Source: Pseudomonadota bacterium | GTDB lineage: Bacteria; Pseudomonadota; Gammaproteobacteria; Steroidobacterales; JBCAXP01 | NCBI GenBank assembly: GCA_038533995.1 | Contig: JBCAXP010000001.1 | Location: 1 to 52,865, forward strand | DNA length: 52,865 bases | Direction: 5' to 3' | Shown here: positions 10,091 through 35,898 of the stretch, piece after piece | Numbering within the stretch: position 1 is the stretch's first letter | Layout: each line of letters opens with the position of its first letter | The notes under the pieces: model-generated | Seen by the model: the letters and a program-made list of their open reading frames with translations, nothing else | Told to the model about the DNA's origin: nothing | Database searches by the model: none | Position numbers and translations under genes: made by a program

Positions 10091-12112
10091 TTGGCCGCTC
10101 GATTAAGGAGTGATTTTTTGAACAGGAGAGATCTGGCGGAGGTTTCAGCCCTCGCAAGCCGTCTCGGACGTCTGCCCCGGCGAACGAAAAGAGCCATCAT
10201 GATCGCGGGTGACTCGGTCATGGTGCCTCTGGCGCTGATCTGTGCGTTCGCACTGCACTACGCCGAGCCGTTTCCAGCCATTCTTGCAACATGGTGGCTC
10301 TATCCCGTTGCGGTCGGGCTGACCATTCCCATCTTTGGCCGCCTGGGTCTGTATCGCGCCGTGGTGCGATTTATGGGGCCACGCGCGGTGTTCGCGGTGC
10401 TTCAGGGGGTGACCCTGATGGTGCTGTTATTCGGCGCGATCGCCCATTTCCTGGCGCCGGCTACGGTACCGTCGACCGCCCTGGTCATGTTCTGGGGCGC
10501 CACCGTGCTCTACGTTGGCGGCAGCCGCTTCGCGGTGCGCAGTTACCTGCAGCGCCAGCATCGGCGCGGCGAGCGGGTTGCCGTTTATGGCGCGGGCGGT
10601 GCCGGCGCGAGGCTGGCTTCGGCGCTGGTTGGCGGCCAGGAGTTTCTGCCCGTGGCCTTCGTGGACGACAGCGTTGCGCTGCACGGCAGCGTCATCAACG
10701 GCATCGAAGTGTTCAATCCCGCCGATCTGCCGCGCCTGGTTAACGACCTGGAAATCACAAGAGTGCTGCTTGCGTTGCCGTCGGTTTCGCGTCGCCGGCG
10801 TATGCGAATCATCAGCCAGCTTGAAGACCTGCACGTTCACATCCAGACCATGCCGAACTTCTCCGACCTGATCTCGGGCAACGCGCGCGTGGACGAAATT
10901 CGCGATGTGGACGTGGCTGATCTGCTGGGCCGGGACACCGTGCCCCCGCACGAGGCGCTGCTGGACGCCTGCATTCGCGACAAGGTCATCATGGTGACCG
11001 GTGCTGGCGGCTCCATCGGCTCGGAGCTGTGCCGCCAGATCGTGCGCCTCGGGCCCAAGCGCCTGCTGCTCGTCGAGCACTCGGAGCTGGCGCTGTACGA
11101 CGTGAACAAAGAGCTGTCGGCCACGTTCGAGCGCGACGGCAAAGACAACGACGCGGTCGATGTGGTGCCGCTGCTGGGCTCTGTCGAAAACAAGGAACGC
11201 ATGACGTCGATCATGACGTCTTTTGGCGTACAGACCGTCTACCACGCCGCCGCCTACAAGCACGTGCCCATGGTGGAGCAAAACATGCTCCAGGGCGTGC
11301 ACAACAACGTGTTCGGCACCTACCACACAGCGCTGGCGGCGATGGAGTGCAACGTCGAGACGTTCGTGCTCGTGTCCACCGACAAGGCGGTCTGCCCCAC
11401 GAACGTTATGGGCGCGACCAAGCGCCTTGCCGAGATGGTGTTGCAGGGGCTTGACGACCGTGGCACGTCCACACGCTTTTGCATGGTGCGCTTTGGCAAC
11501 GTGCTGGAGTCATCCGGCTCCGTCGTGCCCCTGTTCCGCGAGCAGATTCGCCGCGGTGGCCCCGTGACGGTCACGCACCCGGAGATCATTCGTTACTTCA
11601 TGACCATTCCGGAGGCGGCGCAGCTCGTCATCCAGGCCGGTTCGCTCGGCAGGGGCGGTGACGTGTTCGTGCTCGACATGGGCAAGCCGGTGAAGATTGC
11701 CGATCTCGCCAAGCGCATGGTTCACCTCATGGGCCTGACGGTGATGAGCGAAGACAACCCCGACGGCGACATCGAAATCAAGTACACGGGCCTCAGGCCG
11801 GCGGAAAAGCTCTACGAGGAGCTGTTGATCGGCAACAACGTGATGGGCACGAAGCACCCGATGATCATGCGCGCCGAGGAGCAAATGCTGCCGTGGGAGC
11901 GCGTCAGCAGGGTGCTGGATGAATTGCGTGTTGCCTGCAGGCGCTTTGACTGCGAGTCGGCCCGCCACACCCTGATGGCCGCGGTCAACGAGTACAAGCC
12001 GTCGTCCAACGTTGTGGACCTTGTCTGGCAGACGCAGGAAGTGGCGAGTTCCGATGGCGCGATCACGCCAATTGCGAACGTCACGCCGCTGAGCAGCAAC
12101 CGCACCCAGTAA
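10091..12112 (+). CDS. Membrane-anchored nucleotide-sugar 4,6-dehydratase (WbpM/PglF/CapD family)
   Basis: The N-terminus has TM segments after LGRLPRRTKRAIMIAGDSVMV. The SDR core reads VMVTGAGGSIGSEL...YHAAAYKHVP...TDKAV.PTNVMGATKR. The start is uncertain: TTG at 10091 or shortly downstream. Confidence 0.85.
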   Translation: MAARLRSDFLNRRDLAEVSALASRLGRLPRRTKRAIMIAGDSVMVPLALICAFALHYAEPFPAILATWWLYPVAVGLTIPIFGRLGLYRAVVRFMGPRAVFAVLQGVTLMVLLFGAIAHFLAPATVPSTALVMFWGATVLYVGGSRFAVRSYLQRQHRRGERVAVYGAGGAGARLASALVGGQEFLPVAFVDDSVALHGSVINGIEVFNPADLPRLVNDLEITRVLLALPSVSRRRRMRIISQLEDLHVHIQTMPNFSDLISGNARVDEIRDVDVADLLGRDTVPPHEALLDACIRDKVIMVTGAGGSIGSELCRQIVRLGPKRLLLVEHSELALYDVNKELSATFERDGKDNDAVDVVPLLGSVENKERMTSIMTSFGVQTVYHAAAYKHVPMVEQNMLQGVHNNVFGTYHTALAAMECNVETFVLVSTDKAVCPTNVMGATKRLAEMVLQGLDDRGTSTRFCMVRFGNVLESSGSVVPLFREQIRRGGPVTVTHPEIIRYFMTIPEAAQLVIQAGSLGRGGDVFVLDMGKPVKIADLAKRMVHLMGLTVMSEDNPDGDIEIKYTGLRPAEKLYEELLIGNNVMGTKHPMIMRAEEQMLPWERVSRVLDELRVACRRFDCESARHTLMAAVNEYKPSSNVVDLVWQTQEVASSDGAITPIANVTPLSSNRTQ

Positions 12113-27146: not shown

Positions 27147-28859
27147 TTATTGCCAGCGCGCCTGGGCGAAGTTTCTGGCCAGGTTGCCGGCGAGCTGGAG
27201 TTTCTTGCTGGCCTGAAGGTCCTGCTCATGTACCGTCATCATCAGGCGCTGCACGTTGGCATCGAACATGCCGAGCTTGACCCACCCGTCCGACAGGTTT
27301 CTCAGGCCCATCGTGTCCGGTTGGGTTTCGCTGGTGGCACCATCAACAAAGTCGGTGTAGTGCACGGCACCGTCTCGCGGAGCGTAGATGACGTCGCTGA
27401 GCGTAAAGCTGAGGCTCTCGACGACCGGGCGGCCAAAGACGGAGCGCGTCAGGGCCGCATCGGCAGCGATGAAAGAGACTGTGCCCGAGGCATGCGAGGT
27501 GTCGCTTACACCGAGCGGGCGTTCATAGTTTCGGATAATTTCCTTGTCGTTCTTGTAGAGGATGTTCCACTCCACGGCGCCGGGGTGCCGTTTGCTTGCC
27601 CGCAGCTGTTTCTCCACGCGCTTTGCCACCAGGGCCAGGGAGGCCTCGATATCGCTGCGCCCCGTCATTAACGTAAGGTCGACAAGAATGTCTCCCATGT
27701 GGCTCGACCGGTGAATAAGACCATCGGTCTCAAAATGCGGCAGGCGCGGCGATTTCGATTTGCCCTCGGACCATTTTTCGTACACCTGTTTCAGCAGGAA
27801 CGCCTCAATTTCGCGGTACTGCTTCTCGTAGCGTGCGGCGAGTGCCTTGTCCTGGGACACGAGTCTTGCTGTTCGCGCCACTGGCCTCATGCCACGCCAC
27901 TCGTAGAGCGCCAGGTCGATGCCCTTGGCGCCCTTGCCCTTGACTTCGAAACTCACGTAGCCGTCGCCGTTGAGGTCTTTTCCGCTCCTGACGATGTTCA
28001 GCGAAAGCTGCACGGCCCGCTGCAGATACTTGGTGTTGCCGGTGGCCTCGAACATCGACAGCAGGCCCTCGAAGTCTCCGCTGAGGTTGTACAGTTCAAA
28101 GCCGTTGCCGCCGGAGGACATTTCCGCCAGGCGCTTGCCGCGTTTCTGCAGCATCTGGTCGAAGACCGTTGCCAGTTCGTCGATGCGGCTGTCGCGCAGT
28201 GAACACACGGGGCCGCCGGGCGCCAGCAGCAGTTCACTTCTGCCGGCAGGCGAGCCGGCGACACCGTAGCCAATGGTGAGCTGTGGTTTGGTGCCCAGCA
28301 CGAGGCGCCAGCCGGCCCGTGCGTTTCGCTCGATGGCAAAGTCGGTGCCCAGAGAGTCGGATTCCCGACCCGGCACCAGCTGGCCGAGCTGCGCGCGCTT
28401 CAGCCGGGGCGTGCCCGGTGCCACCTGGATGCCGTCACCGCTGCTAACGGAGTAGGACTTGTCCACATCGACATACACCAGCTGGCAATCGACGATTGCG
28501 GTCGCCGGAGGCTTCTGCGCATCAGCCGGTTTGCTCACCGGCGCCGGAGCAGGTTCAGGTGCCGGAGCGGGGGTTGGCGGCGCGGCGGTCTGCGTTGGTG
28601 CGCTATCGGCTGTCGCGTTGTCTTGCTTCGCCGTCTTGATGACCTCTTCCGCTTCAGTGACCGGTGCCGTGGCTTCAGCTTCGCCCTCGGCGGCGGTAAG
28701 CGAGAGCGGTGCCGGGTCAATCATTGGCTCCGGTGCAGGCGCTGCGGCTAGCGAAGCTTCGACCGAGGTGCCCCGATCGTCGGAGCACCCCGAAAGCAGC
28801 ACGGCCATTGCCGCGGTCACTAACAGGGTAAACGGGTGGGCGTCATTGAGTTGCGGCAC
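27147..28859 (-). CDS. Lipoprotein of unknown function with a Pro/Ala-rich linker
   Basis: The lipobox is AVLLSGC. An approximately 100-aa Ala/Pro/Glu/Thr-rich low-complexity segment follows (PPTPAPAPEPAPAPVSKP). The remainder is a globular region of about 430 aa with no motif I can name. Confidence 0.6.
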   Translation of the reverse strand: MPQLNDAHPFTLLVTAAMAVLLSGCSDDRGTSVEASLAAAPAPEPMIDPAPLSLTAAEGEAEATAPVTEAEEVIKTAKQDNATADSAPTQTAAPPTPAPAPEPAPAPVSKPADAQKPPATAIVDCQLVYVDVDKSYSVSSGDGIQVAPGTPRLKRAQLGQLVPGRESDSLGTDFAIERNARAGWRLVLGTKPQLTIGYGVAGSPAGRSELLLAPGGPVCSLRDSRIDELATVFDQMLQKRGKRLAEMSSGGNGFELYNLSGDFEGLLSMFEATGNTKYLQRAVQLSLNIVRSGKDLNGDGYVSFEVKGKGAKGIDLALYEWRGMRPVARTARLVSQDKALAARYEKQYREIEAFLLKQVYEKWSEGKSKSPRLPHFETDGLIHRSSHMGDILVDLTLMTGRSDIEASLALVAKRVEKQLRASKRHPGAVEWNILYKNDKEIIRNYERPLGVSDTSHASGTVSFIAADAALTRSVFGRPVVESLSFTLSDVIYAPRDGAVHYTDFVDGATSETQPDTMGLRNLSDGWVKLGMFDANVQRLMMTVHEQDLQASKKLQLAGNLARNFAQARWQ

Positions 28860-29047: not shown

Positions 29048-29091
29048 TGTCAAGTAAAATTGACACATATTGGTGACCATTTGAATTGACA
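29048..29091. promoter_or_regulatory. Tandem PpsR/CrtJ-type operator (TGT-N12-ACA x2, 8-bp spacer) upstream of pucB
   Basis: Site 1 is TGTCAAGTAAAATTGACA at 29048-29065, with perfect TGTCAA/TTGACA arms. Site 2 is TGACCATTTGAATTGACA at 29074-29091, with one mismatch in the TGT half. Confidence 0.6.
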
Positions 29092-29198: not shown

Positions 29199-29360
29199 AT
29201 GGCTGACCTAGACGATCCGGATCGCGTATGGCCAACGGGGTATACCCTGAAGGAAGCCGAAGAGATTCATAAGCACATCATTGACGGCACGCGGGTATTT
29301 TTTGCAATTTCCGCGGTAGCCCACGTGTTGGTGTTTACGCTCTCACCGTGGCTCGGATAA
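29199..29360 (+). CDS. pucB: Light-harvesting complex 2 beta apoprotein
   Basis: Not in the ORF track (53 aa). The sequence is [53 protein letters not shown]. It has the beta-chain pattern VWP.G....EAEE.H......GTRVF......AH.L......PWL with both conserved His. GGGAG lies 7 nt upstream of the ATG. Confidence 0.92.
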
Positions 29361-29370
29361 GGAGACCCTC

Positions 29371-29514
29371 ATGAATCAAAGTCGCATGTGGCTGGTGGTG
29401 AACCCTACGATCGGCATCCCGCTTTTTTTGGGTGGGGTCGCACTGATCTCTTTCACGGTTCATTTCGCTATCCTCAACAATACGACGTGGTTCGCGAAGT
29501 TTTTCGGCGGCTGA
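29371..29514 (+). CDS. pucA: Light-harvesting complex 2 alpha apoprotein
   Basis: Not in the ORF track (47 aa). The sequence is [47 protein letters not shown]. Compare the LH2 alpha pattern MNQGKIW.VVNP.IGIP..LG......VH.AIL..TTW. AAGGAG lies 6 nt upstream of the ATG. Confidence 0.92.
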
Positions 29515-29549
29515 TAAAGCCAACTCGGAAAACCAGCGAAAAACCCTAG

Positions 29550-29577
29550 CACCGGGTCCGGAATTCCGGGCCCGGTG
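29550..29577 (+). terminator. Stem-loop after pucA (12-bp stem incl. one G-U; attenuator / mRNA-stabilising element)
   Basis: CACCGGGTCCGG-aatt-CCGGGCCCGGTG begins 36 nt after the pucA stop. No U-tract follows. Confidence 0.55.
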
Positions 29578-29630
29578 ACGGGTACAATCTGATCCGTGGC
29601 GACACGGGCTTTCACCTGAGGGGCATATCA

Positions 29631-30305
29631 ATGTTTCCCATTACACGTTTGTATGCATCGGAAGACGCTGCGCACGCCGCCATCGCAAAGGTGGTGGAGC
29701 TCGAGGTTTCTCCCGATGTCGTAACGGTCGTTAACCCCAACGTCGAAGATGCCGCCGCCGCGGTGGACGCGCTGATCGACGCTGGCAAGGCCCGCTCGGG
29801 CCACCGCTATGCGTTGCGTAAGGCCCTGGCTAACGGCCGGACCATCGTCAGCGTTCTCCCGGAGTGGGGCATGGGCAGCGCGGTGGAGAACACGCTCGAA
29901 AACAACGGCGCTGTCGATTCCGACACGATTCGCGACTACAACAAGAGCAGCCCCACGCCGTTCTCTGACTTCTTTGGTCTGCCGGTGCTGATCAAAAGCA
30001 AGTCGCATACAGAACTGATCAAGTTTGACTCCGACTCGTCGTTCGGCCTTGACCTGATCAGCCGCAAGGCGACGCCACTCTCTTCCCTGTTCGGCATTAA
30101 GCTGCTATCGAAGCACAAGAGCGCCAGGGGTACTTCGATCGAGAAGATGTCCAGTCAGCCGGCATGGCTGTCTTCGAAGATTGGCCTGAAGCTCTTGTCG
30201 AAGCATAAGAGTGCCAGGGGCACCTCGATTGAGCGTCTGTCCAGCAGGGGCACGCTTTTCTCGGGCTTTCTCGGCCTTCCGGTTCTGACAAAGCGCAAGA
30301 AATAA
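29631..30305 (+). CDS. Uncharacterised protein between pucA and pucC; the C-terminal half is built of basic G-L-x-x-L-[IST]-[KR] repeats
   Basis: 224 aa, with GAGGGG 8 nt upstream of the ATG. Five motif copies are present: FGLPVLIK, FGLDLISR, FGIKLLSK, IGLKLLSK and LGLPVLTK. Two 30-aa units are conserved at protein level but use different synonymous codons. Confidence 0.65.
   Translation: MFPITRLYASEDAAHAAIAKVVELEVSPDVVTVVNPNVEDAAAAVDALIDAGKARSGHRYALRKALANGRTIVSVLPEWGMGSAVENTLENNGAVDSDTIRDYNKSSPTPFSDFFGLPVLIKSKSHTELIKFDSDSSFGLDLISRKATPLSSLFGIKLLSKHKSARGTSIEKMSSQPAWLSSKIGLKLLSKHKSARGTSIERLSSRGTLFSGFLGLPVLTKRKK
30087..30266 (+). repeat. Two tandem 90-nt (30-aa) coding repeats inside the pucA-pucC gene
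   Basis: The units are LFGIKLLSKHKSARGTSIEKMSS... and KIGLKLLSKHKSARGTSIERLSS.... In the 21-codon core, 18 residues are identical and 8 of those use different synonymous codons. Confidence 0.85.
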
Positions 30306-30323: not shown

Positions 30324-30341
30324 TGTCAGGATAAACTGACA
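30324..30341. promoter_or_regulatory. PpsR/CrtJ-type palindrome upstream of pucC (also the core of an 11-bp perfect hairpin, 30319-30346)
   Basis: TGTCAGGATAAACTGACA fits TGT-N12-ACA. The extended inverted repeat is AAGAATGTCAG-gataaa-CTGACATTCTT. TTGACA at 30361-30366 plus N18 and TATGGT follows, mirroring the pucB promoter layout. Confidence 0.55.
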
Positions 30342-30498
30342 TTCTTGGCGACAACTTCTATTGACACTCGCGGGCAAGCACCGTTATGGTGGTCTTGCCC
30401 GGCAGTGCTTGCCGCAGGCATTTGTTTCCTGGCCGGGTGCCGGGACGGCCACCTGTACGAGGTTGCTCCAGGGCCCGGGAAGAGTTGATCTAACCGAC

Positions 30499-31953
30499 AT
30501 GCCCACACTTAGCCAGCGGTTCACTTTCTGGTTGGTCTCGAAAGGGTCGAAATACATGCCGTTTGCCGATGTTGCAACGGCAGACCTGCCGCTCAGCCGG
30601 CTCCTTCGCCTTTCCCTCTTCCAGGTAACTACCGGCATGGCGCTGGTGCTTCTCGTTGGCACTCTCAACCGCGTCATGATCGTTGAGCTCGCGGTGCCGG
30701 CGGCGCTCGTCGGCATCATGCTCGCTTTGCCTCTTGTGTTTGCGCCGTTCAGGGCGCTCATCGGGCACAAGTCCGACACTCACCGCTGCGAGCTTGGCTG
30801 GCGCCGCGTCCCGTTCATATGGAAGGGCACGCTGTGGCAATTCGGCGGCTTTGCCGTGATGCCCTTCGCTTTGCTCGTGCTGGCCGGCAAGGGCGAAGCC
30901 GGAACCGCGCCGCTGTGGATTGGCCATAGCGCGGCGGCACTGGCGTTTTTGCTGGTTGGCGCCGGCGTGCATACCGTGCAGACCGCGGGTCTGGCACTGG
31001 CCACGGACCTGACGCCCCGCGAGTCCCACCCGCGCGTTGTTGGCCTCATGTACGTGATGCTGCTGGTCGGCATGATAGTCAGCGCACTGCTGTTTGGTGC
31101 TGCGCTCAGAGACTTCAGCCCCGGGCGGCTGATACAGGTTATCCAGGGTGCGGCGCTCGTTTCGATCGTGCTGAACGTCGTTGCCATGTGGAAGCAGGAA
31201 ACGCGTCAGCGGCGGCCAAAACCCGCCGTGCCGGATCCCACGTTCCGCGAATCATGGAACGAGTTTTGCCGCGGCGAGCAAACCCGCCGGCGCCTGGCGA
31301 TCGTGGGCCTGGGTTCCATGGCCTTTGCGATGGCTGACGTATTGCTGGAGCCTTTCGGCGGGCAGGTACTGTCGATGTCCGTCGCGGCGACGACCAAGCT
31401 CACGGCGTTGCTCGCACTTGGCGGGCTGATGGGCTTTGCCTTCGCCTCGCGGCAGGTCGGCCGCGGCGCCGACGCGTACCGCATGGCCCTGCTCGGTGCC
31501 CTCGTCGGTCTGCCCGCCTTCATGCTGGTTATCGCCGCTGCGCCGCTCGGCATGACGGCGCTGTTTCTTGCGGGCAACTTCCTCATCGGCTTTGGCGGTG
31601 CACTGTTTGGCCACGGCACGCTCACGGCGACGATGCAGCGTGCGCCCGCTTCCCAGTCAGGCCTTGCGCTCGGTGCCTGGGGCGCAGTTCAGGCGACGGC
31701 GGTTGGCGTTGCCATGGCCGTGAGCGGCGCGCTTCGCGACGTGGTCACCACGTCCTGGAGCGGCAACGGCTTCTGGGGCCTGGGCAGCGAAGCGAGTGGT
31801 TACTTCACCGTCTACGGCGTGGAAATGGTGCTGCTCGTGGTCACGGTGGTCGCAACGCTTCCGCTTATTCGCAGCCTCGGCCAGCAGCGCAGCCGGAACG
31901 TGTCGCCTGGTGTTTCGGCGAGCGAAGTGGTGCCGGGGCAGCGCACCGCGTAG
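30499..31953 (+). CDS. pucC: PucC / LhaA-family MFS protein (LH2 assembly factor)
   Basis: PFADVATADLPLSRLLRLSLFQVTTGMALVLLVGTLNRVMIVELAVPAALVGIMLALPLVFAPFRALIGHKSDTHRCELGWRRVPFIWKGTLWQFGGFAVMPFALL matches the PucC signature. The start is ATG at 30499. The track TTG start at 30361 lies in the promoter/palindrome region. Confidence 0.9.
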   Translation: MPTLSQRFTFWLVSKGSKYMPFADVATADLPLSRLLRLSLFQVTTGMALVLLVGTLNRVMIVELAVPAALVGIMLALPLVFAPFRALIGHKSDTHRCELGWRRVPFIWKGTLWQFGGFAVMPFALLVLAGKGEAGTAPLWIGHSAAALAFLLVGAGVHTVQTAGLALATDLTPRESHPRVVGLMYVMLLVGMIVSALLFGAALRDFSPGRLIQVIQGAALVSIVLNVVAMWKQETRQRRPKPAVPDPTFRESWNEFCRGEQTRRRLAIVGLGSMAFAMADVLLEPFGGQVLSMSVAATTKLTALLALGGLMGFAFASRQVGRGADAYRMALLGALVGLPAFMLVIAAAPLGMTALFLAGNFLIGFGGALFGHGTLTATMQRAPASQSGLALGAWGAVQATAVGVAMAVSGALRDVVTTSWSGNGFWGLGSEASGYFTVYGVEMVLLVVTVVATLPLIRSLGQQRSRNVSPGVSASEVVPGQRTA

Positions 31954-31963
31954 GCGTATCACT

Positions 31964-32473
31964 TTGACTACGCTCACCGTCATAGAGTATCCCGATCCGT
32001 TACTGCGCGAGCCGTCGTTGGCGGTGGATACCTTCGACGCATCGACGCAGCAGCTTGCCGGCGACCTCATCGACACGATGTACGCGGCGAAATGCATCGG
32101 TCTGAGCGCCGTACAGGTCGGCGTTCATCAGCAGATGCTCGTGATGGATCACTCGTCGGACCAGTCAGAGCCCGAAGTGTACGTGAACCCCGAGATCCTG
32201 CTGCAAAAGCGAACGGGGCTCATCGAAGAGCGCTGTGTGTCGGTGCCCGGCCAGGTTGCCTTTGTTCTTCGGGCAACGCAGTTACTCGTGCGTGCCAGGG
32301 ATGAGCACGGCACGACCTTTGAACGCGAACTCCTCGGCATGCCGGCGGTGTGCCTGCAGCACGAGATGGATCATTTCGACGGCAAGCTTCTCGTTGACCG
32401 CCTCAACTGGTTCAAACGCCGCCGGCTGCACGCAGCGCTGGACAAGGCCGGACAGCTCGCGGCGTCTGCCTGA
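31964..32473 (+). CDS. def: Peptide deformylase paralog (divergent motifs 1 and 2)
   Basis: The start is an in-frame TTG at 31964, 10 nt after the pucC stop. Motif 1 is CIGLSAVQVG, motif 2 is ERCVSVPG (canonical EGCLS) and motif 3 is QHEMDHFDG. The Cys and both His metal ligands are present. Confidence 0.75.
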   Translation: MTTLTVIEYPDPLLREPSLAVDTFDASTQQLAGDLIDTMYAAKCIGLSAVQVGVHQQMLVMDHSSDQSEPEVYVNPEILLQKRTGLIEERCVSVPGQVAFVLRATQLLVRARDEHGTTFERELLGMPAVCLQHEMDHFDGKLLVDRLNWFKRRRLHAALDKAGQLAASA

Positions 32474-32499: not shown

Positions 32500-32898
32500 T
32501 CAGGTTCTTCGGCTTTTTCCGGGCCGGGACTCACGTACGGACTTCAACCAGTTGCTCAACGTCGACTGCTGACGCGCGGTTAGTTCAAGCGCGCCTGCCA
32601 TCAGCTCGATCGTATCGATAACCCGGCTGCGAATAGCGGCGCTGGCCTCGGTGTCCGGAATGGCAGGCCCCTTGCCAAACAGAATCCAGCTCGGAGAAAC
32701 GCGAGTGATCTCGGCGATCGCCTGGATGATTTTCAGGTTCGGGTTTTTCGGCTCGGTGGTTTCCAGGCGGTGGAGACCGGTTTTGGATAGCTCAATGCCG
32801 AATTCGCGAAGCTCGGCCCGTAGGCCGGCAGGGTCCATCTGCGCGCGCTGGCGCGCGAAACGAATGCGTTCGGCAATGTTGGCGGGTGCTTCGCTCAC
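32500..32898 (-). CDS. XRE-family helix-turn-helix transcriptional regulator
   Basis: IAERIRFARQRAQMDPAGLRAELREFGIELSKTGLHRLETTEPKNPNLKIIQAIAEITRVSPSWILFG. The preferred start is GTG at 32898 (GGAG 5 nt upstream). The track start is 32934. Confidence 0.7.
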   Translation of the reverse strand: MSEAPANIAERIRFARQRAQMDPAGLRAELREFGIELSKTGLHRLETTEPKNPNLKIIQAIAEITRVSPSWILFGKGPAIPDTEASAAIRSRVIDTIELMAGALELTARQQSTLSNWLKSVRESRPGKSRRT

Positions 32899-32939
32899 GG
32901 CGTCTCCAGGAAGGGTGCTGCCACCGTATAGCACACGAC

Positions 32940-33117: not shown

Positions 33118-33480
33118 TTACTCCTGGATCTTGTGGGGCTGAAGTTCGCTGTCCACGAGTTGCGCGAGCGCTGACGAAGGCGTCGACAGGTAAAGATGCA
33201 CCCAGCCCTGCTGCTCCCGCCACACGTGATAGAGGAGTTCGGTATCGGTGCCATTCACCGTCACGGCAAACTTCTGCTGCTTTTCTTCGTCGATTGATAC
33301 GGATTCGGTCAGCGTAACCAGTGCATCGACATCCACGGCAGAGTCCGTGGCCAGGTTCAGTGCTGCCAGGAACACCGGCACGGCGTCATCGGTAACGTTG
33401 CCGGTGACAGTGATGTTCTCCGGTTCGGAAGGTGAGCACGCAAAAAGAAGCAGGACGAAAGGGACGAGAAGAGCTTTCAC
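33118..33480 (-). CDS. Small lipoprotein, unknown function
   Basis: MKALLVPFVLLLFAC/SPSE has a signal peptide and a lipobox. No other motif was recognised. Confidence 0.5.
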   Translation of the reverse strand: MKALLVPFVLLLFACSPSEPENITVTGNVTDDAVPVFLAALNLATDSAVDVDALVTLTESVSIDEEKQQKFAVTVNGTDTELLYHVWREQQGWVHLYLSTPSSALAQLVDSELQPHKIQE

Positions 33481-33741
33481 TGGCGACTCCTGTTATCAAT
33501 GGCGGTTGACGTTGGCAACGGCGCCTGTTGTGCAGACAGCGGTCTCCCCTCTTACAATGGCGCGCGAGCCCGTGCAAGCGGTTTGCGCCAGGCAGAGCCC
33601 AGGTCGCGATGACCCGAGCGGGCGGCAGCGTTGGTTGACTCTGCGATGCTCACCAAGGCAATGTTCCCACTGCACCGACGTTGTGCTGCACGCCTTGCCT
33701 GCAGCTCCCTACCTGAAGACGCCAGACATGGAGTTAAGTTG

Positions 33742-35898
33742 ATGATCAGGACAGCATTCGGATTCTTACTGATGATGTGCGCGGTGTTCGCGCACGCCGA
33801 GGAAATCCACTGGCCGCAGGAGCTCACCGCAGACAACGGCGCAGTCATCGTTATCTACCAGCCGCAGATCGAGACGTTCTCGGGCAACAGTCTCGAAGGG
33901 CGGGCCGCGGTCTCGGTCAAGTCGGAAGAAACGGGCGGCGCGCCGGTGTTCGGGGCGATCTGGTTCCAGGCAAAGATCGACACGGACCGCGACACGCGCT
34001 CAGCGCTCATTCGCGACGTGGACGTTGCCGACGTGCGCTTCGCCGATGCCACCGACGCGCAGAAGGAGAGCCTGGCCAAGTTTATCGAGGGCAGAATTGA
34101 AGGTTCCGCGTTCCCGATCAGCGTCGACCAGGTGCTGACCGATCTCGACACCGCGGGCGGCGCCGATGCAGAACTCAAGCACGATGCCCCCGAGATCATG
34201 CTGTCCACGGTGCCGGCGCTGCTGGTGTCCATCGACGGTGAGCCCAGGCTGGAGAAAATCGACGGCTCGAAGTACGAACGCGTCGTGAACACGCCGTTCC
34301 TGATCGTGAAAGACGGCAGCGACTACTATCTCTACATCGGCAGCGACGCCTGGTACGAGGCGAACGCCATCGCCGGTCCGTGGGCCGAGACGGGTCGCGT
34401 GCCGCAGGACATCCGCTCGCTCGTCGAGCCTGCAGAAGACGACGACGCAAAGACGGACGGGCTTCGCATCATCATCGCCACGACACCCACGGAGCTGGTG
34501 GTGTCAGACGGCCCGCCGTCCTGGACGCCTGTTGAAGGCATGGGCCTTCTCTACATGGATAACACCGACAGCAACGCGTTCCTGGAGCTGTCGACGCAGC
34601 GCTACTACGTGCTGCTGTCAGGCCGCTGGTACCGCAGCGAAGGTATGGAAGGCGAGCTCACCTGGATGCACGTGCCCAATGACCAGCTGCCCGAACCGTT
34701 CGCAGACATTCCGGAAGACTCGGTGAACGGCGCCGTCCTGAGCCAGGTGGCTGGTACGCAGCAGGCACGGGAGGCGGTGCTAGACAACACCATTCCGCAA
34801 ACCGCCGCGATTCAGCGCGACGACGATTCGTTCACTGTCGAGTACGACGGCAAGCCGGACTTTGCGCCGATCGAGAACATCCAGGTGCAGTACGCGCAGA
34901 ACACGAGCGAGTCGGTATTCAAGTACGGCAAGGACTACTTCGCGTGTAACGATGGCGTCTGGTACCAGTCGGCGAGCGCCACCGGACCGTGGAAGGTTGC
35001 CACCGAGGTACCGCAGGCCATCTACGACATTCCGGCCTCCAACCCGCACCACAACGTGACGTACGTGAAAGTGTACGACGTTACGCCGCAGGTAGTGTAC
35101 GTGGGCTACACGCCGGGCTACTACGGCAGCTACTACTATCGCGGCACGGTGATTTATGGCACGGGCTGGTACTACAACCCGTGGTACGGCCGTTACTACT
35201 ACCCGCGTTACCCGACCTGGGGTTTTCACGTGCACTACAACCCCTGGTACGGCTGGGGCTTCGGTGTGTCATGGACGAACGGGCCGTTTCGCTTCACCTT
35301 CTCGAGCCGCGGCGCCTGGTGGGGCGTGGGCGGTTACCGCCCTTACCCGCGCCCGGTGCCGTACGGCGGCTACCGCAAGACCAATATCAACATCAACAAC
35401 ACGATCAACATCAATGGTCGCCCCAACCGCCCGCAGACCCGGCCCAATCTCTACAACCGGCCGCAGAACTTAAAGCGCAATGCGCAGCGGCCGGCGGTGC
35501 CGGCAGACCGCCGCGCACGGCCTGCCAACAACCTGCAGAACAACGTACTGACAGACCGGTCGGGCAACGTGTATCAGCGTGATAACAACGGCAGTTGGAA
35601 ACAGCGCGACAACGGCCAGTGGAAGCCGCCGCAGAACCTCGACCGCTCGGCGCCGTCGACGCGGCCGTCGCAACTGCCGTCGTCACGGCCATCGCAGCTG
35701 CCGTCTTCGCGGCCATCGCAGATGCCCTCGTCCCGGCCATCGCAAATGCCGTCGTCACGCCCGTCGCAGTTTCCGTCGAGCCGTCCTGCACAGCCGGCGG
35801 TTCGGCCGCAGCTCGAGCGGGACTTCGGCGCGCGTCAGCAGGGTATGCGGCGCAGCCAGGGATTTCAGCGCCAAGGTGGCGGTGGGCGGCGCCGCTAG
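33742..35898 (+). CDS. Secreted protein of unknown function with a Tyr/Trp-rich block, an Asn/Ile tract and Ser/Pro tandem repeats
   Basis: The start is ATG at 33742 (GGAG 8 nt upstream), giving MIRTAFGFLLMMCAVFAHA/EE with a signal peptide. The track start at 33631 is rejected. Confidence 0.7.
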   Translation: MIRTAFGFLLMMCAVFAHAEEIHWPQELTADNGAVIVIYQPQIETFSGNSLEGRAAVSVKSEETGGAPVFGAIWFQAKIDTDRDTRSALIRDVDVADVRFADATDAQKESLAKFIEGRIEGSAFPISVDQVLTDLDTAGGADAELKHDAPEIMLSTVPALLVSIDGEPRLEKIDGSKYERVVNTPFLIVKDGSDYYLYIGSDAWYEANAIAGPWAETGRVPQDIRSLVEPAEDDDAKTDGLRIIIATTPTELVVSDGPPSWTPVEGMGLLYMDNTDSNAFLELSTQRYYVLLSGRWYRSEGMEGELTWMHVPNDQLPEPFADIPEDSVNGAVLSQVAGTQQAREAVLDNTIPQTAAIQRDDDSFTVEYDGKPDFAPIENIQVQYAQNTSESVFKYGKDYFACNDGVWYQSASATGPWKVATEVPQAIYDIPASNPHHNVTYVKVYDVTPQVVYVGYTPGYYGSYYYRGTVIYGTGWYYNPWYGRYYYPRYPTWGFHVHYNPWYGWGFGVSWTNGPFRFTFSSRGAWWGVGGYRPYPRPVPYGGYRKTNININNTININGRPNRPQTRPNLYNRPQNLKRNAQRPAVPADRRARPANNLQNNVLTDRSGNVYQRDNNGSWKQRDNGQWKPPQNLDRSAPSTRPSQLPSSRPSQLPSSRPSQMPSSRPSQMPSSRPSQFPSSRPAQPAVRPQLERDFGARQQGMRRSQGFQRQGGGGRRR
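35659..35796 (+). repeat. 24-nt (8-aa) tandem coding repeat, five full copies plus a partial one: (S/T)RPSQ(L/M/F)PS
   Basis: The copies read TRPSQLPS SRPSQLPS SRPSQMPS SRPSQMPS SRPSQFPS SRPAQP, taken directly from the frame of the 33742 gene. Confidence 0.9.

Follow-up and report, generated by a model that had tools for sequence, protein, structure and literature searches.

The puc operons that encode light-harvesting complex 2 (LH2) are known to carry extra accessory genes, and the only LH2 assembly factor that is widely recognised is, to our knowledge, PucC. How the LH2 ring comes together, i.e., how its polypeptides are inserted, how the N-terminus of the alpha polypeptide matures to carboxy-Met, and how B800, B850 and carotenoid are loaded, is still largely obscure. 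Both polypeptides, alpha and beta, have their N-terminal regions at the cytoplasmic surface; these regions form every hydrogen bond within the heterodimer, and alpha ligates B800 through its N-terminal carboxy-Met1 (PMC8775250). PucC promotes LH2 assembly and oligomerises at the sites where membrane invagination starts, and in Rba. sphaeroides it is important for LH2, though not essential (PMC4949548). The DNA analysed here (the window) is a whole contig of 52,865 bp from a marine metagenome-assembled genome (MAG) labelled 'Pseudomonadota bacterium', and it holds a puc operon in which a gene for a 224-residue repeat protein, deposited as hypothetical protein AAFN78_00130 and called X here, stands between pucA and pucC. 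An initial annotation made from the sequence alone had placed this reading frame, with its own ribosome-binding site, at this position and proposed it as a candidate LH2-associated factor; the first statement is confirmed (Table 1), and the second is supported by genomic context. Our tentative proposal, to which we give a probability of somewhat under one half (about 0.45), is that X is a soluble cytoplasmic accessory factor dedicated to LH2, whose repeat tail would dock multivalently on LH2 or on PucC.

The linkage of X to LH2 genes is well supported, and its association with LH2 is read from this genomic context. We surveyed 30 distinct loci (the window and 29 others), summarised by uniform tblastn, in a sample that is biased toward homologs found from the X query; it includes the cultured Rhodovibrio salinarum and Salinarimonas rosea, 17 GTDB species genomes (with labels such as Wenzhouxiangella, Woeseiaceae, Devosia, Methyloceanibacter, Acetobacteraceae and two Myxococcota MAGs), a Congregibacter MAG and several long metagenome contigs. 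X adjoins pucBA and/or pucC in 28 of the 30. With pucB, pucA and pucC written as B, A and C, and with def for a peptide deformylase paralog, the gene orders are B-A-X-C(-def) in 15 loci, including the window, X-B-A-C(-def) in eight, B-A-C-X in two, and X-B-A-X'-B-A-C-def, B-A-C-def-X, and X divergent from B-A-C in one each. The linked loci carry the labels Gammaproteobacteria, Alphaproteobacteria and Myxococcota, although a MAG can be mislabelled (the label of one locus is Spirochaetales); the Myxococcota labels are credible because phototrophic Myxococcota have been reported independently (PMC10576062). Even the weakest homologs that we sampled (P0097 and P0104, at E of about 1e-6 in the first search) are linked to puc genes. 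One outcome that the initial annotation had named as speaking against its proposal, homologs common in non-phototrophs and without puc linkage, did not occur among the 30 loci. One locus, L007, is uninformative, in that its contig ends 354 nt past X, with a palindrome at the place where its relatives have the pucB promoter.

Two loci carry more than one copy of X. L027 (8001-13694) has pucBA twice, either pair being directly preceded by its own long-form X paralog (about 330 aa), and both pairs are followed by a single pucC-def and a bacteriophytochrome gene; that each pair has an X of its own suggests that X is specific for particular alpha-beta pairs. The Congregibacter locus has two X paralogs in tandem 5' of pucBA. 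The antenna genes of the window are themselves of the LH2 type. The closest solved structures to PucB are the beta chains of LH2 B800-850/820 (8z81_b at 1.4e-21; 7zdi_B), with far weaker matches to the solved chains of light-harvesting complex 1 (LH1), and the solved-structure matches of PucA at E ≤ 0.001 are all LH2 alpha chains, with no LH1 chain among them.

X is a real gene under purifying selection. Its ortholog in locus L033, which lies on an independent metagenome contig in the order pucB-pucA-X-pucC, is 83% identical, and between the two proteins dN/dS is 0.12 overall, 0.10 in the N-terminal domain and 0.14 in the tail, at a dS of 0.82. X also contains an internal duplication with a period of 30 residues, of which 21 are identical, 10 of these 21 by way of different codons; the two copies share 59 of 90 nucleotides, and Tandem Repeats Finder did not detect the duplication at the DNA level. 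The earlier argument that synonymous codon differences (8 among 18 identical residues, as then counted) mark a real gene is thus borne out by the dN/dS value and by hundreds of homolog clusters, and our recount makes the effect slightly stronger. Shadow reading frames on the minus strand (e.g., 29628-30008, 126 aa) were set aside because the homologs support the plus-strand frame. A single-sequence search with X returned 114 homologs and a profile search 574 at E ≤ 1e-10, and HMMER, run exhaustively over 1.84 billion cluster representatives, returned 536 at E ≤ 1e-30 (counted as clusters at 50% identity), 996 at E ≤ 1e-10 and, far beyond the core of 536, 3419 at E ≤ 0.001. Source names are attached to only about a quarter of the matches, and in both listings every name is 'hypothetical'; no listed match has a precomputed Pfam domain.

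The breadth of these weaker matches bears on the possibility that X is a general small stress or housekeeping protein that hitch-hikes with the puc module by horizontal transfer and has no role in LH2. The 3419 matches show a penumbra of YflT-like or low-complexity proteins around the core family, and one member of the family (L005, in a Chromatiaceae MAG) has queC as its neighbour and lacks any puc gene over a distance of 6 kb. We nevertheless consider this explanation very improbable, in that the linkage survives six rearrangements across groups labelled as two phyla, which passive travel would not be expected to do, X paralogs duplicate together with pucBA, and PpsR-type sites lie directly 5' of X in the loci where X comes first.

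X is predicted to have a folded head and a disordered tail. AlphaFold2, supplied with an alignment of 89 sequences, assigns a pLDDT of 95-98 to residues 1-100, with secondary structure in the order beta-alpha-beta-alpha-alpha-beta-alpha, and predicts the same head fold for the long family member P0116. The isoelectric point of the head is 4.7 in X, with a family median of 5.2 (n = 188). X matches no Pfam family even at E ≤ 1 and no NCBIfam family; among the 89 aligned relatives, 22 show weak matches to PF11181 (YflT), at best with E = 3.4e-5, and the profile evidence indicates that the head is probably a distant YflT-like domain. The view that the N-terminal 110 or so residues are free of motifs is therefore right for X as searched against Pfam and NCBIfam but not for the family, in which this half is a predicted folded domain with those weak YflT matches. 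A sequence-profile search of the PDB with X gave only noise, its best match being ribosomal protein S20 at E = 0.13, which we rejected as functional evidence. Foldseek against the PDB gave a best E of 0.16, with nothing below 0.1 and no YflT structure among the matches, and a PII/ferredoxin-like resemblance of the head (target-side TM of about 0.55) was likewise rejected as generic. No cysteine or histidine occurs among the invariant and near-invariant columns of the family, and a literature search found no paper that ties YflT to photosynthesis.

The isoelectric point of the tail is 10.8 (family median 10.9, n = 188), and for residues 110-224 AlphaFold2 predicts no secondary structure, at a pLDDT near 50. 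All five short basic motifs that had been read from the sequence are present exactly as quoted (FGLPVLIK, FGLDLISR, FGIKLLSK, IGLKLLSK and LGLPVLTK, at residues 115, 138, 154, 184 and 214), and they follow the pattern [FIL]G[LI]x[LV][LI][ST][KR]. Across the family the repeat is a unit of 16 residues, N-P-A-P-L-S-S-x-F-G-L-P-[LV]-L-[ST]-K, and consecutive cores are spaced by 16 residues in 194 cases and next most often by 32 residues, in 49. Within the unit, P-L-S-S and L-P-x-L are strongly conserved, with proline at position -5 in 66% and serine at -3 in 72%; the glycine is at 100% by construction of the search pattern, and the last core position was limited to L, I, V or M (leucine in 92% within that set). 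The number of strict cores per protein ranges from 1 to 9, with a mode of 5, and the longer members (300-550 aa) have gained either further repeats or a tandem duplication of the whole head-and-tail module, no foreign domain being found fused to any of them.

Three readings of these repeats were considered and rejected. The proposal that the motifs form amphipathic helices at a membrane surface fails on the low helical hydrophobic moments of the five cores in X (0.15-0.43), on the invariant glycine and the usual proline, and on a tail in which AlphaFold2 predicts no helix. A solenoid-type repeat fold was rejected because a 415-residue relative with about 14 repeats is also left unfolded by AlphaFold2 (pLDDT of roughly 40-50 throughout its repeats). 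Mimicry of the N-terminal PucA segment 'PTVGLPLFL' was rejected on the 2-3 bits that a model of the repeat unit gives to PucA, a score that many random reading frames share. On the predicted structures, the repeats are instead short linear motifs within a disordered basic tail. A tail that is basic, predicted to be disordered, built of conserved 16-residue units and under purifying selection has the signature of multivalent binding through short linear motifs, and the family would be an unusual bacterial case in which such a disordered motif array is the part that is conserved and selected.

The same tail suits a second explanation, that X belongs to the structure of the LH2-rich membrane, as a peripheral component or an organiser: a non-pigment subunit, a linker between rings, or a curvature wedge whose hydrophobic cores would insert into the cytoplasmic leaflet and help to curve and pack the intracytoplasmic membrane. 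Multivalent basic tails with hydrophobic cores would be well suited to bridging identical rings or to entering an anionic leaflet, which, being cytoplasmic, is the outer leaflet of the invaginated vesicles. In addition, the nucleoporin FG-repeat model PF13634 weakly matches 12 of the 89 relatives (best E = 1.6e-3), which points to a composition like that of cohesive FG domains. Against this, the strong hairpin after pucA, or the separate promoter region, argues for an X that is sub-stoichiometric; its repeat number is very variable, and the solved structures, LH2 included, contain no X-like chain, although they come from organisms that are not known to carry X. On balance we hold a structural role to be improbable.

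Our preferred explanation, an accessory factor for LH2, starts from the absence of any signal peptide or membrane-spanning segment in X, for which reason we take it to be cytoplasmic. From there we infer a role in assembly along the following lines. X would be made together with the LH2 alpha and beta polypeptides, though in smaller amounts, and would share their PpsR-type control by oxygen and light, and its basic tail would be drawn to the anionic cytoplasmic surface of the membrane. The repeated motifs could then dock, several at once, onto a target that is itself repeated. The likeliest such target would be the N-terminal face that one alpha-beta unit after another turns to the cytoplasm and at which the B800 site forms, since this is the sole part of LH2 that is accessible from the cytoplasm; the alternative would be the oligomeric assembly factor PucC. 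By holding or concentrating the subunits, X may give PucC and the deformylase of the operon the opportunity to finish N-terminal maturation, pigment loading and ring closure.

Several observations weigh against this proposal. The contact of X with LH2, PucC or the membrane is drawn from genomic context and predicted structure, and searches by structure and by sequence yield no functional homolog; the YflT family itself has no established function. The member beside queC shows that X can occur apart from puc genes within the 6 kb covered. The likeness of the repeat core to 'VGLPLFL' in PucA is not above background, and the highly variable number of repeats does not match an 8- or 9-fold ring. 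Furthermore, as far as we know, the published puc operons of Rhodobacter, Rhodopseudomonas and Rhodoblastus lack X, and the named matches, about a quarter of all matches, include none of these genera. Because these model LH2 organisms appear to be without X, it is not universally required for LH2 assembly.

The regulatory sequences around X bear on when and how much of it is made. The initial annotation had noted two PpsR-type operators flanking X and argued for co-regulation with the antenna; both are perfect TGTCA-N8-TGACA palindromes, the sole two in the 52.9-kb window, although the looser pattern TGT-N12-ACA shows no window-wide enrichment (12 found, 7.6 expected). Both are conserved in position in L033, with arms unchanged and spacers diverged, the counterpart of the site between X and pucC being TGTCAGTCTGAACTGACA. 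Paired sites 8 bp apart, as found upstream of pucB in the window, also occur in L003 (Salinarimonas). Palindromes lie 5' of pucB in many loci, and in X-first loci also directly 5' of X; a PAS-HTH_8 (PpsR-type) gene is found near the module in L027 and L030-L032. It is thus plausible, on these sequence patterns, that X shares PpsR-type control with pucBA.

Between pucA and X, the RNA of the 121-nt intergenic region (29512-29632) has a predicted folding energy of -55 kcal/mol, with z = -5.6 against shuffled sequences, and its 12-bp stem is kept in L033, where only the loop differs. By analogy with the puc operons of Rhodobacter, this stem-loop is probably an mRNA stabiliser or attenuator that divides pucBA from X, and the expression of X is predicted to fall below that of pucBA. 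The same spacer contains a second small stem, CCGUG-GCGA-CACGG, at about 29594-29607. A sigma-70-like pattern occurs at two sites (0.7 expected), and the TTGACA of the one in front of pucC is kept in L033, which suggests that pucC-def could be transcribed separately.

This regulatory setting is also the ground for a third explanation, in which X acts post-translationally or in signalling to regulate LH2 abundance: the head would detect stress or a redox cue, and antenna size would be tuned through the tail, which would sequester or release a partner, be it PucC, an adaptor of a protease, or some part of the PpsR/bacteriophytochrome circuit. A heat-induced general stress protein gave its name to the domain to which the head is distantly related (PF11181, in the 22 of 89 relatives above), the module adjoins a bacteriophytochrome gene and a PAS-HTH_8 gene in four loci and heme oxygenase in three (L030-L032), X has PpsR-type palindromes of its own in X-first loci, and model LH2 organisms apparently manage without it, as would be expected of a modulator. 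Yet X lacks any domain for binding DNA or a cofactor, any kinase domain and any other domain of a signalling protein, and the family has no conserved cysteine or histidine in its invariant or near-invariant columns; moreover, the tight pairing with individual pucBA pairs in L027 points to a structural partner more than to a global regulator. We judge a regulatory role to be unlikely.

The three loci with heme oxygenase have a layout in common (about 7500-16700 in L030, L031 and L032). Here cbbX-cbbS-cbbL is divergent from pucB-pucA-X-pucC-def-heme oxygenase, after which come a bacteriophytochrome gene, a PpsR-like gene (PAS and HTH_8), an FAD-dependent oxidoreductase gene that is possibly bchP, and a gene of the PucC family, so that RuBisCO and a regulatory block of bacteriophytochrome and PpsR type are both coupled to the antenna module.

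The deformylase paralog is part of a conserved puc module, pucB-pucA-X-pucC-def. Of the 29 other loci, 22 have a def homolog 3' of pucC (those listed with def after pucC are L001, L003, L008, L010-L021, L023, L027, L028 and L030-L032). In the window its start codon, TTG, lies 11 nt past the pucC stop, and its motif 2 reads ERCVS as against the canonical EGCLS, with HEMDH kept; most puc-linked copies have E[RS]C[LVM]S in motif 2, keep HExxH, and often have a degenerate motif 1. A dedicated deformylase is an attractive idea because LH2 alpha needs a free Met1 amine for the carboxy-Met ligand of B800, and a literature search found no paper linking pucC and def. Taken to its full extent, the five genes would form one LH2 biogenesis module, present in many LH2-containing bacteria, in which each 16-residue unit of X captures a single nascent alpha-beta unit or a single PucC protomer, the deformylase frees the Met1 amine of alpha for carboxylation, and both together template the B800 site and ring closure; in this complete form we regard the scheme as doubtful. 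Were it true, no earlier bacterial antenna would have a soluble, disordered scaffold described for its assembly, and X would offer a handle on how the ring size of LH2 and its B800 occupancy are set. X and the divergent deformylase nonetheless make two concrete, testable candidates for LH2 biogenesis, cultured carriers (Rhodovibrio salinarum and Salinarimonas rosea) make genetics and biochemistry feasible, and the two genes can serve as metagenome markers of the X-type puc operon.

The remaining features of the operon and its surroundings are collected in Table 1. Because its neighbours are genes for polysaccharide synthesis, the puc operon of the window lies outside any photosynthesis gene cluster. 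Four reading frames that flank the operon lack any Pfam match at E ≤ 0.001; the one of 570 aa resembles a lipoprotein at its N-terminus and contains a long linker rich in Ala and Pro. The N-terminus of PucC, MPTLSQRF, is also kept in L033. Among the surveyed loci, most PucA proteins are 47-48 residues long and end in FPAFFGG, but in some, e.g., L025 (7122-7364) and L029 (6006-6386), PucA has a long C-terminal (periplasmic) extension and totals 68-126 residues. A kinship of X with the long C-terminal extension of Puc2A in Rba. sphaeroides would conflict with topology, the C-terminus of alpha being periplasmic, and a literature search yielded nothing that bears on it. In L008, an additional pucB-like tblastn match (10424-10543), about 1.5 kb 3' of def, could be another antenna gene or just part of one.

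Table 1. Features of the puc operon and its flanks, in positions of the 52,865-bp window
Feature	Position	Strand	Description
Flanking reading frame	27147-28859	-	570 aa; no Pfam match at E ≤ 0.001
PpsR/CrtJ-type palindrome	29048-29065	+	TGTCAAGTAAAATTGACA; about 150 nt 5' of pucB
Second PpsR/CrtJ-type site	29074-29091	+	TGACCATTTGAATTGACA; one mismatch; 8 bp after the first palindrome
pucB	29199-29360	+	LH2 beta polypeptide, 53 aa; PF00556, E = 4.5e-8
pucA	29371-29514	+	LH2 alpha polypeptide, 47 aa; PF00556, E = 8.7e-11
Stem-loop	29550-29577	+	CACCGGGTCCGG-AATT-CCGGGCCCGGTG; 12-bp GC-rich stem just 3' of pucA
Shine-Dalgarno sequence of X	29618-29623	+	GAGGGG, 7 nt 5' of the ATG; read directly from the sequence
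X	29631-30305	+	224 aa; ATG start; stop codon within the span
X, N-terminal domain	29631-29942	+	residues 1 to about 104; predicted folded (AlphaFold2)
X, C-terminal basic tail	29943-30305	+	residues about 105-224; five repeat cores; predicted disordered
PpsR/CrtJ-type palindrome	30324-30341	+	TGTCAGGATAAACTGACA; between X and pucC
Sigma-70-like promoter	30361-30390	+	TTGACA-18-TATGGT; 5' of pucC; 10/12 match to consensus
pucC	30499-31953	+	MFS-type LH2 assembly factor; PF03209, E = 5.9e-145
def	31964-32473	+	peptide deformylase paralog, 169 aa; PF01327, E = 1.5e-42
Flanking reading frame	32500-32934	-	144 aa; no Pfam match at E ≤ 0.001
Flanking reading frame	33118-33480	-	120 aa; no Pfam match at E ≤ 0.001
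Flanking reading frame	33631-35898	+	755 aa; no Pfam match at E ≤ 0.001

In the literature that could be searched (on puc reading frames, pucD/pucE, puc genes of Halieaceae, and phototrophic Myxococcota) there is no description of the X family, which, as far as can be told, is unrelated to the known puc accessories and unusual in its architecture. Its nearest functional counterpart would be PucC/LhaA (PF03209), with which X shares an operon, probable PpsR-type control and an expected role in LH2 biogenesis; like PucC, X is probably helpful rather than strictly essential, since model LH2 organisms appear to be without it. PucC, however, is a membrane protein of the MFS type with 12 helices, whereas X is soluble, has no PF03209 match, and is related to it neither in sequence nor in fold. 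Nor does X resemble the LH alpha and beta polypeptides (PF00556), having no match to that family and no conserved histidine. PucD and PucE (gamma) of the Rhodobacter capsulatus pucBACDE operon offer a precedent for extra non-pigment puc genes that influence how stable or how abundant LH2 is; they are proteins of about 100-120 residues that are not known to carry such repeats, and X is probably distinct from them.

The head of X begins with a beta-alpha-beta pattern (RxYxSExxAxxAxxxLxxxGF) of the kind seen in YflT/general stress protein 17M (PF11181), whereas the repeat tail has no place in the YflT model, which X itself does not match at E ≤ 1. The tail is like the nucleoporin FG repeats (PF13634) and other sticker-spacer proteins in being disordered, with short hydrophobic F-G cores evenly spaced among polar or charged spacers; the likeness is compositional and implies no homology, and X differs in its longer and better conserved unit of 16 residues (P-L-S-S-x-F-G-L-P-x-L), its strongly basic character and its bacterial origin. 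In its proposed role, X would come nearest to the chaperones cpSRP43 and LTD of chloroplast light-harvesting proteins, which are soluble factors dedicated to abundant small antenna apoproteins before or during their assembly into the membrane. There is no homology between them, and the arrangement is reversed: in cpSRP43 and LTD, folded ankyrin or chromodomain surfaces bind a motif in the client, whereas in X the repeated motifs sit in the helper.

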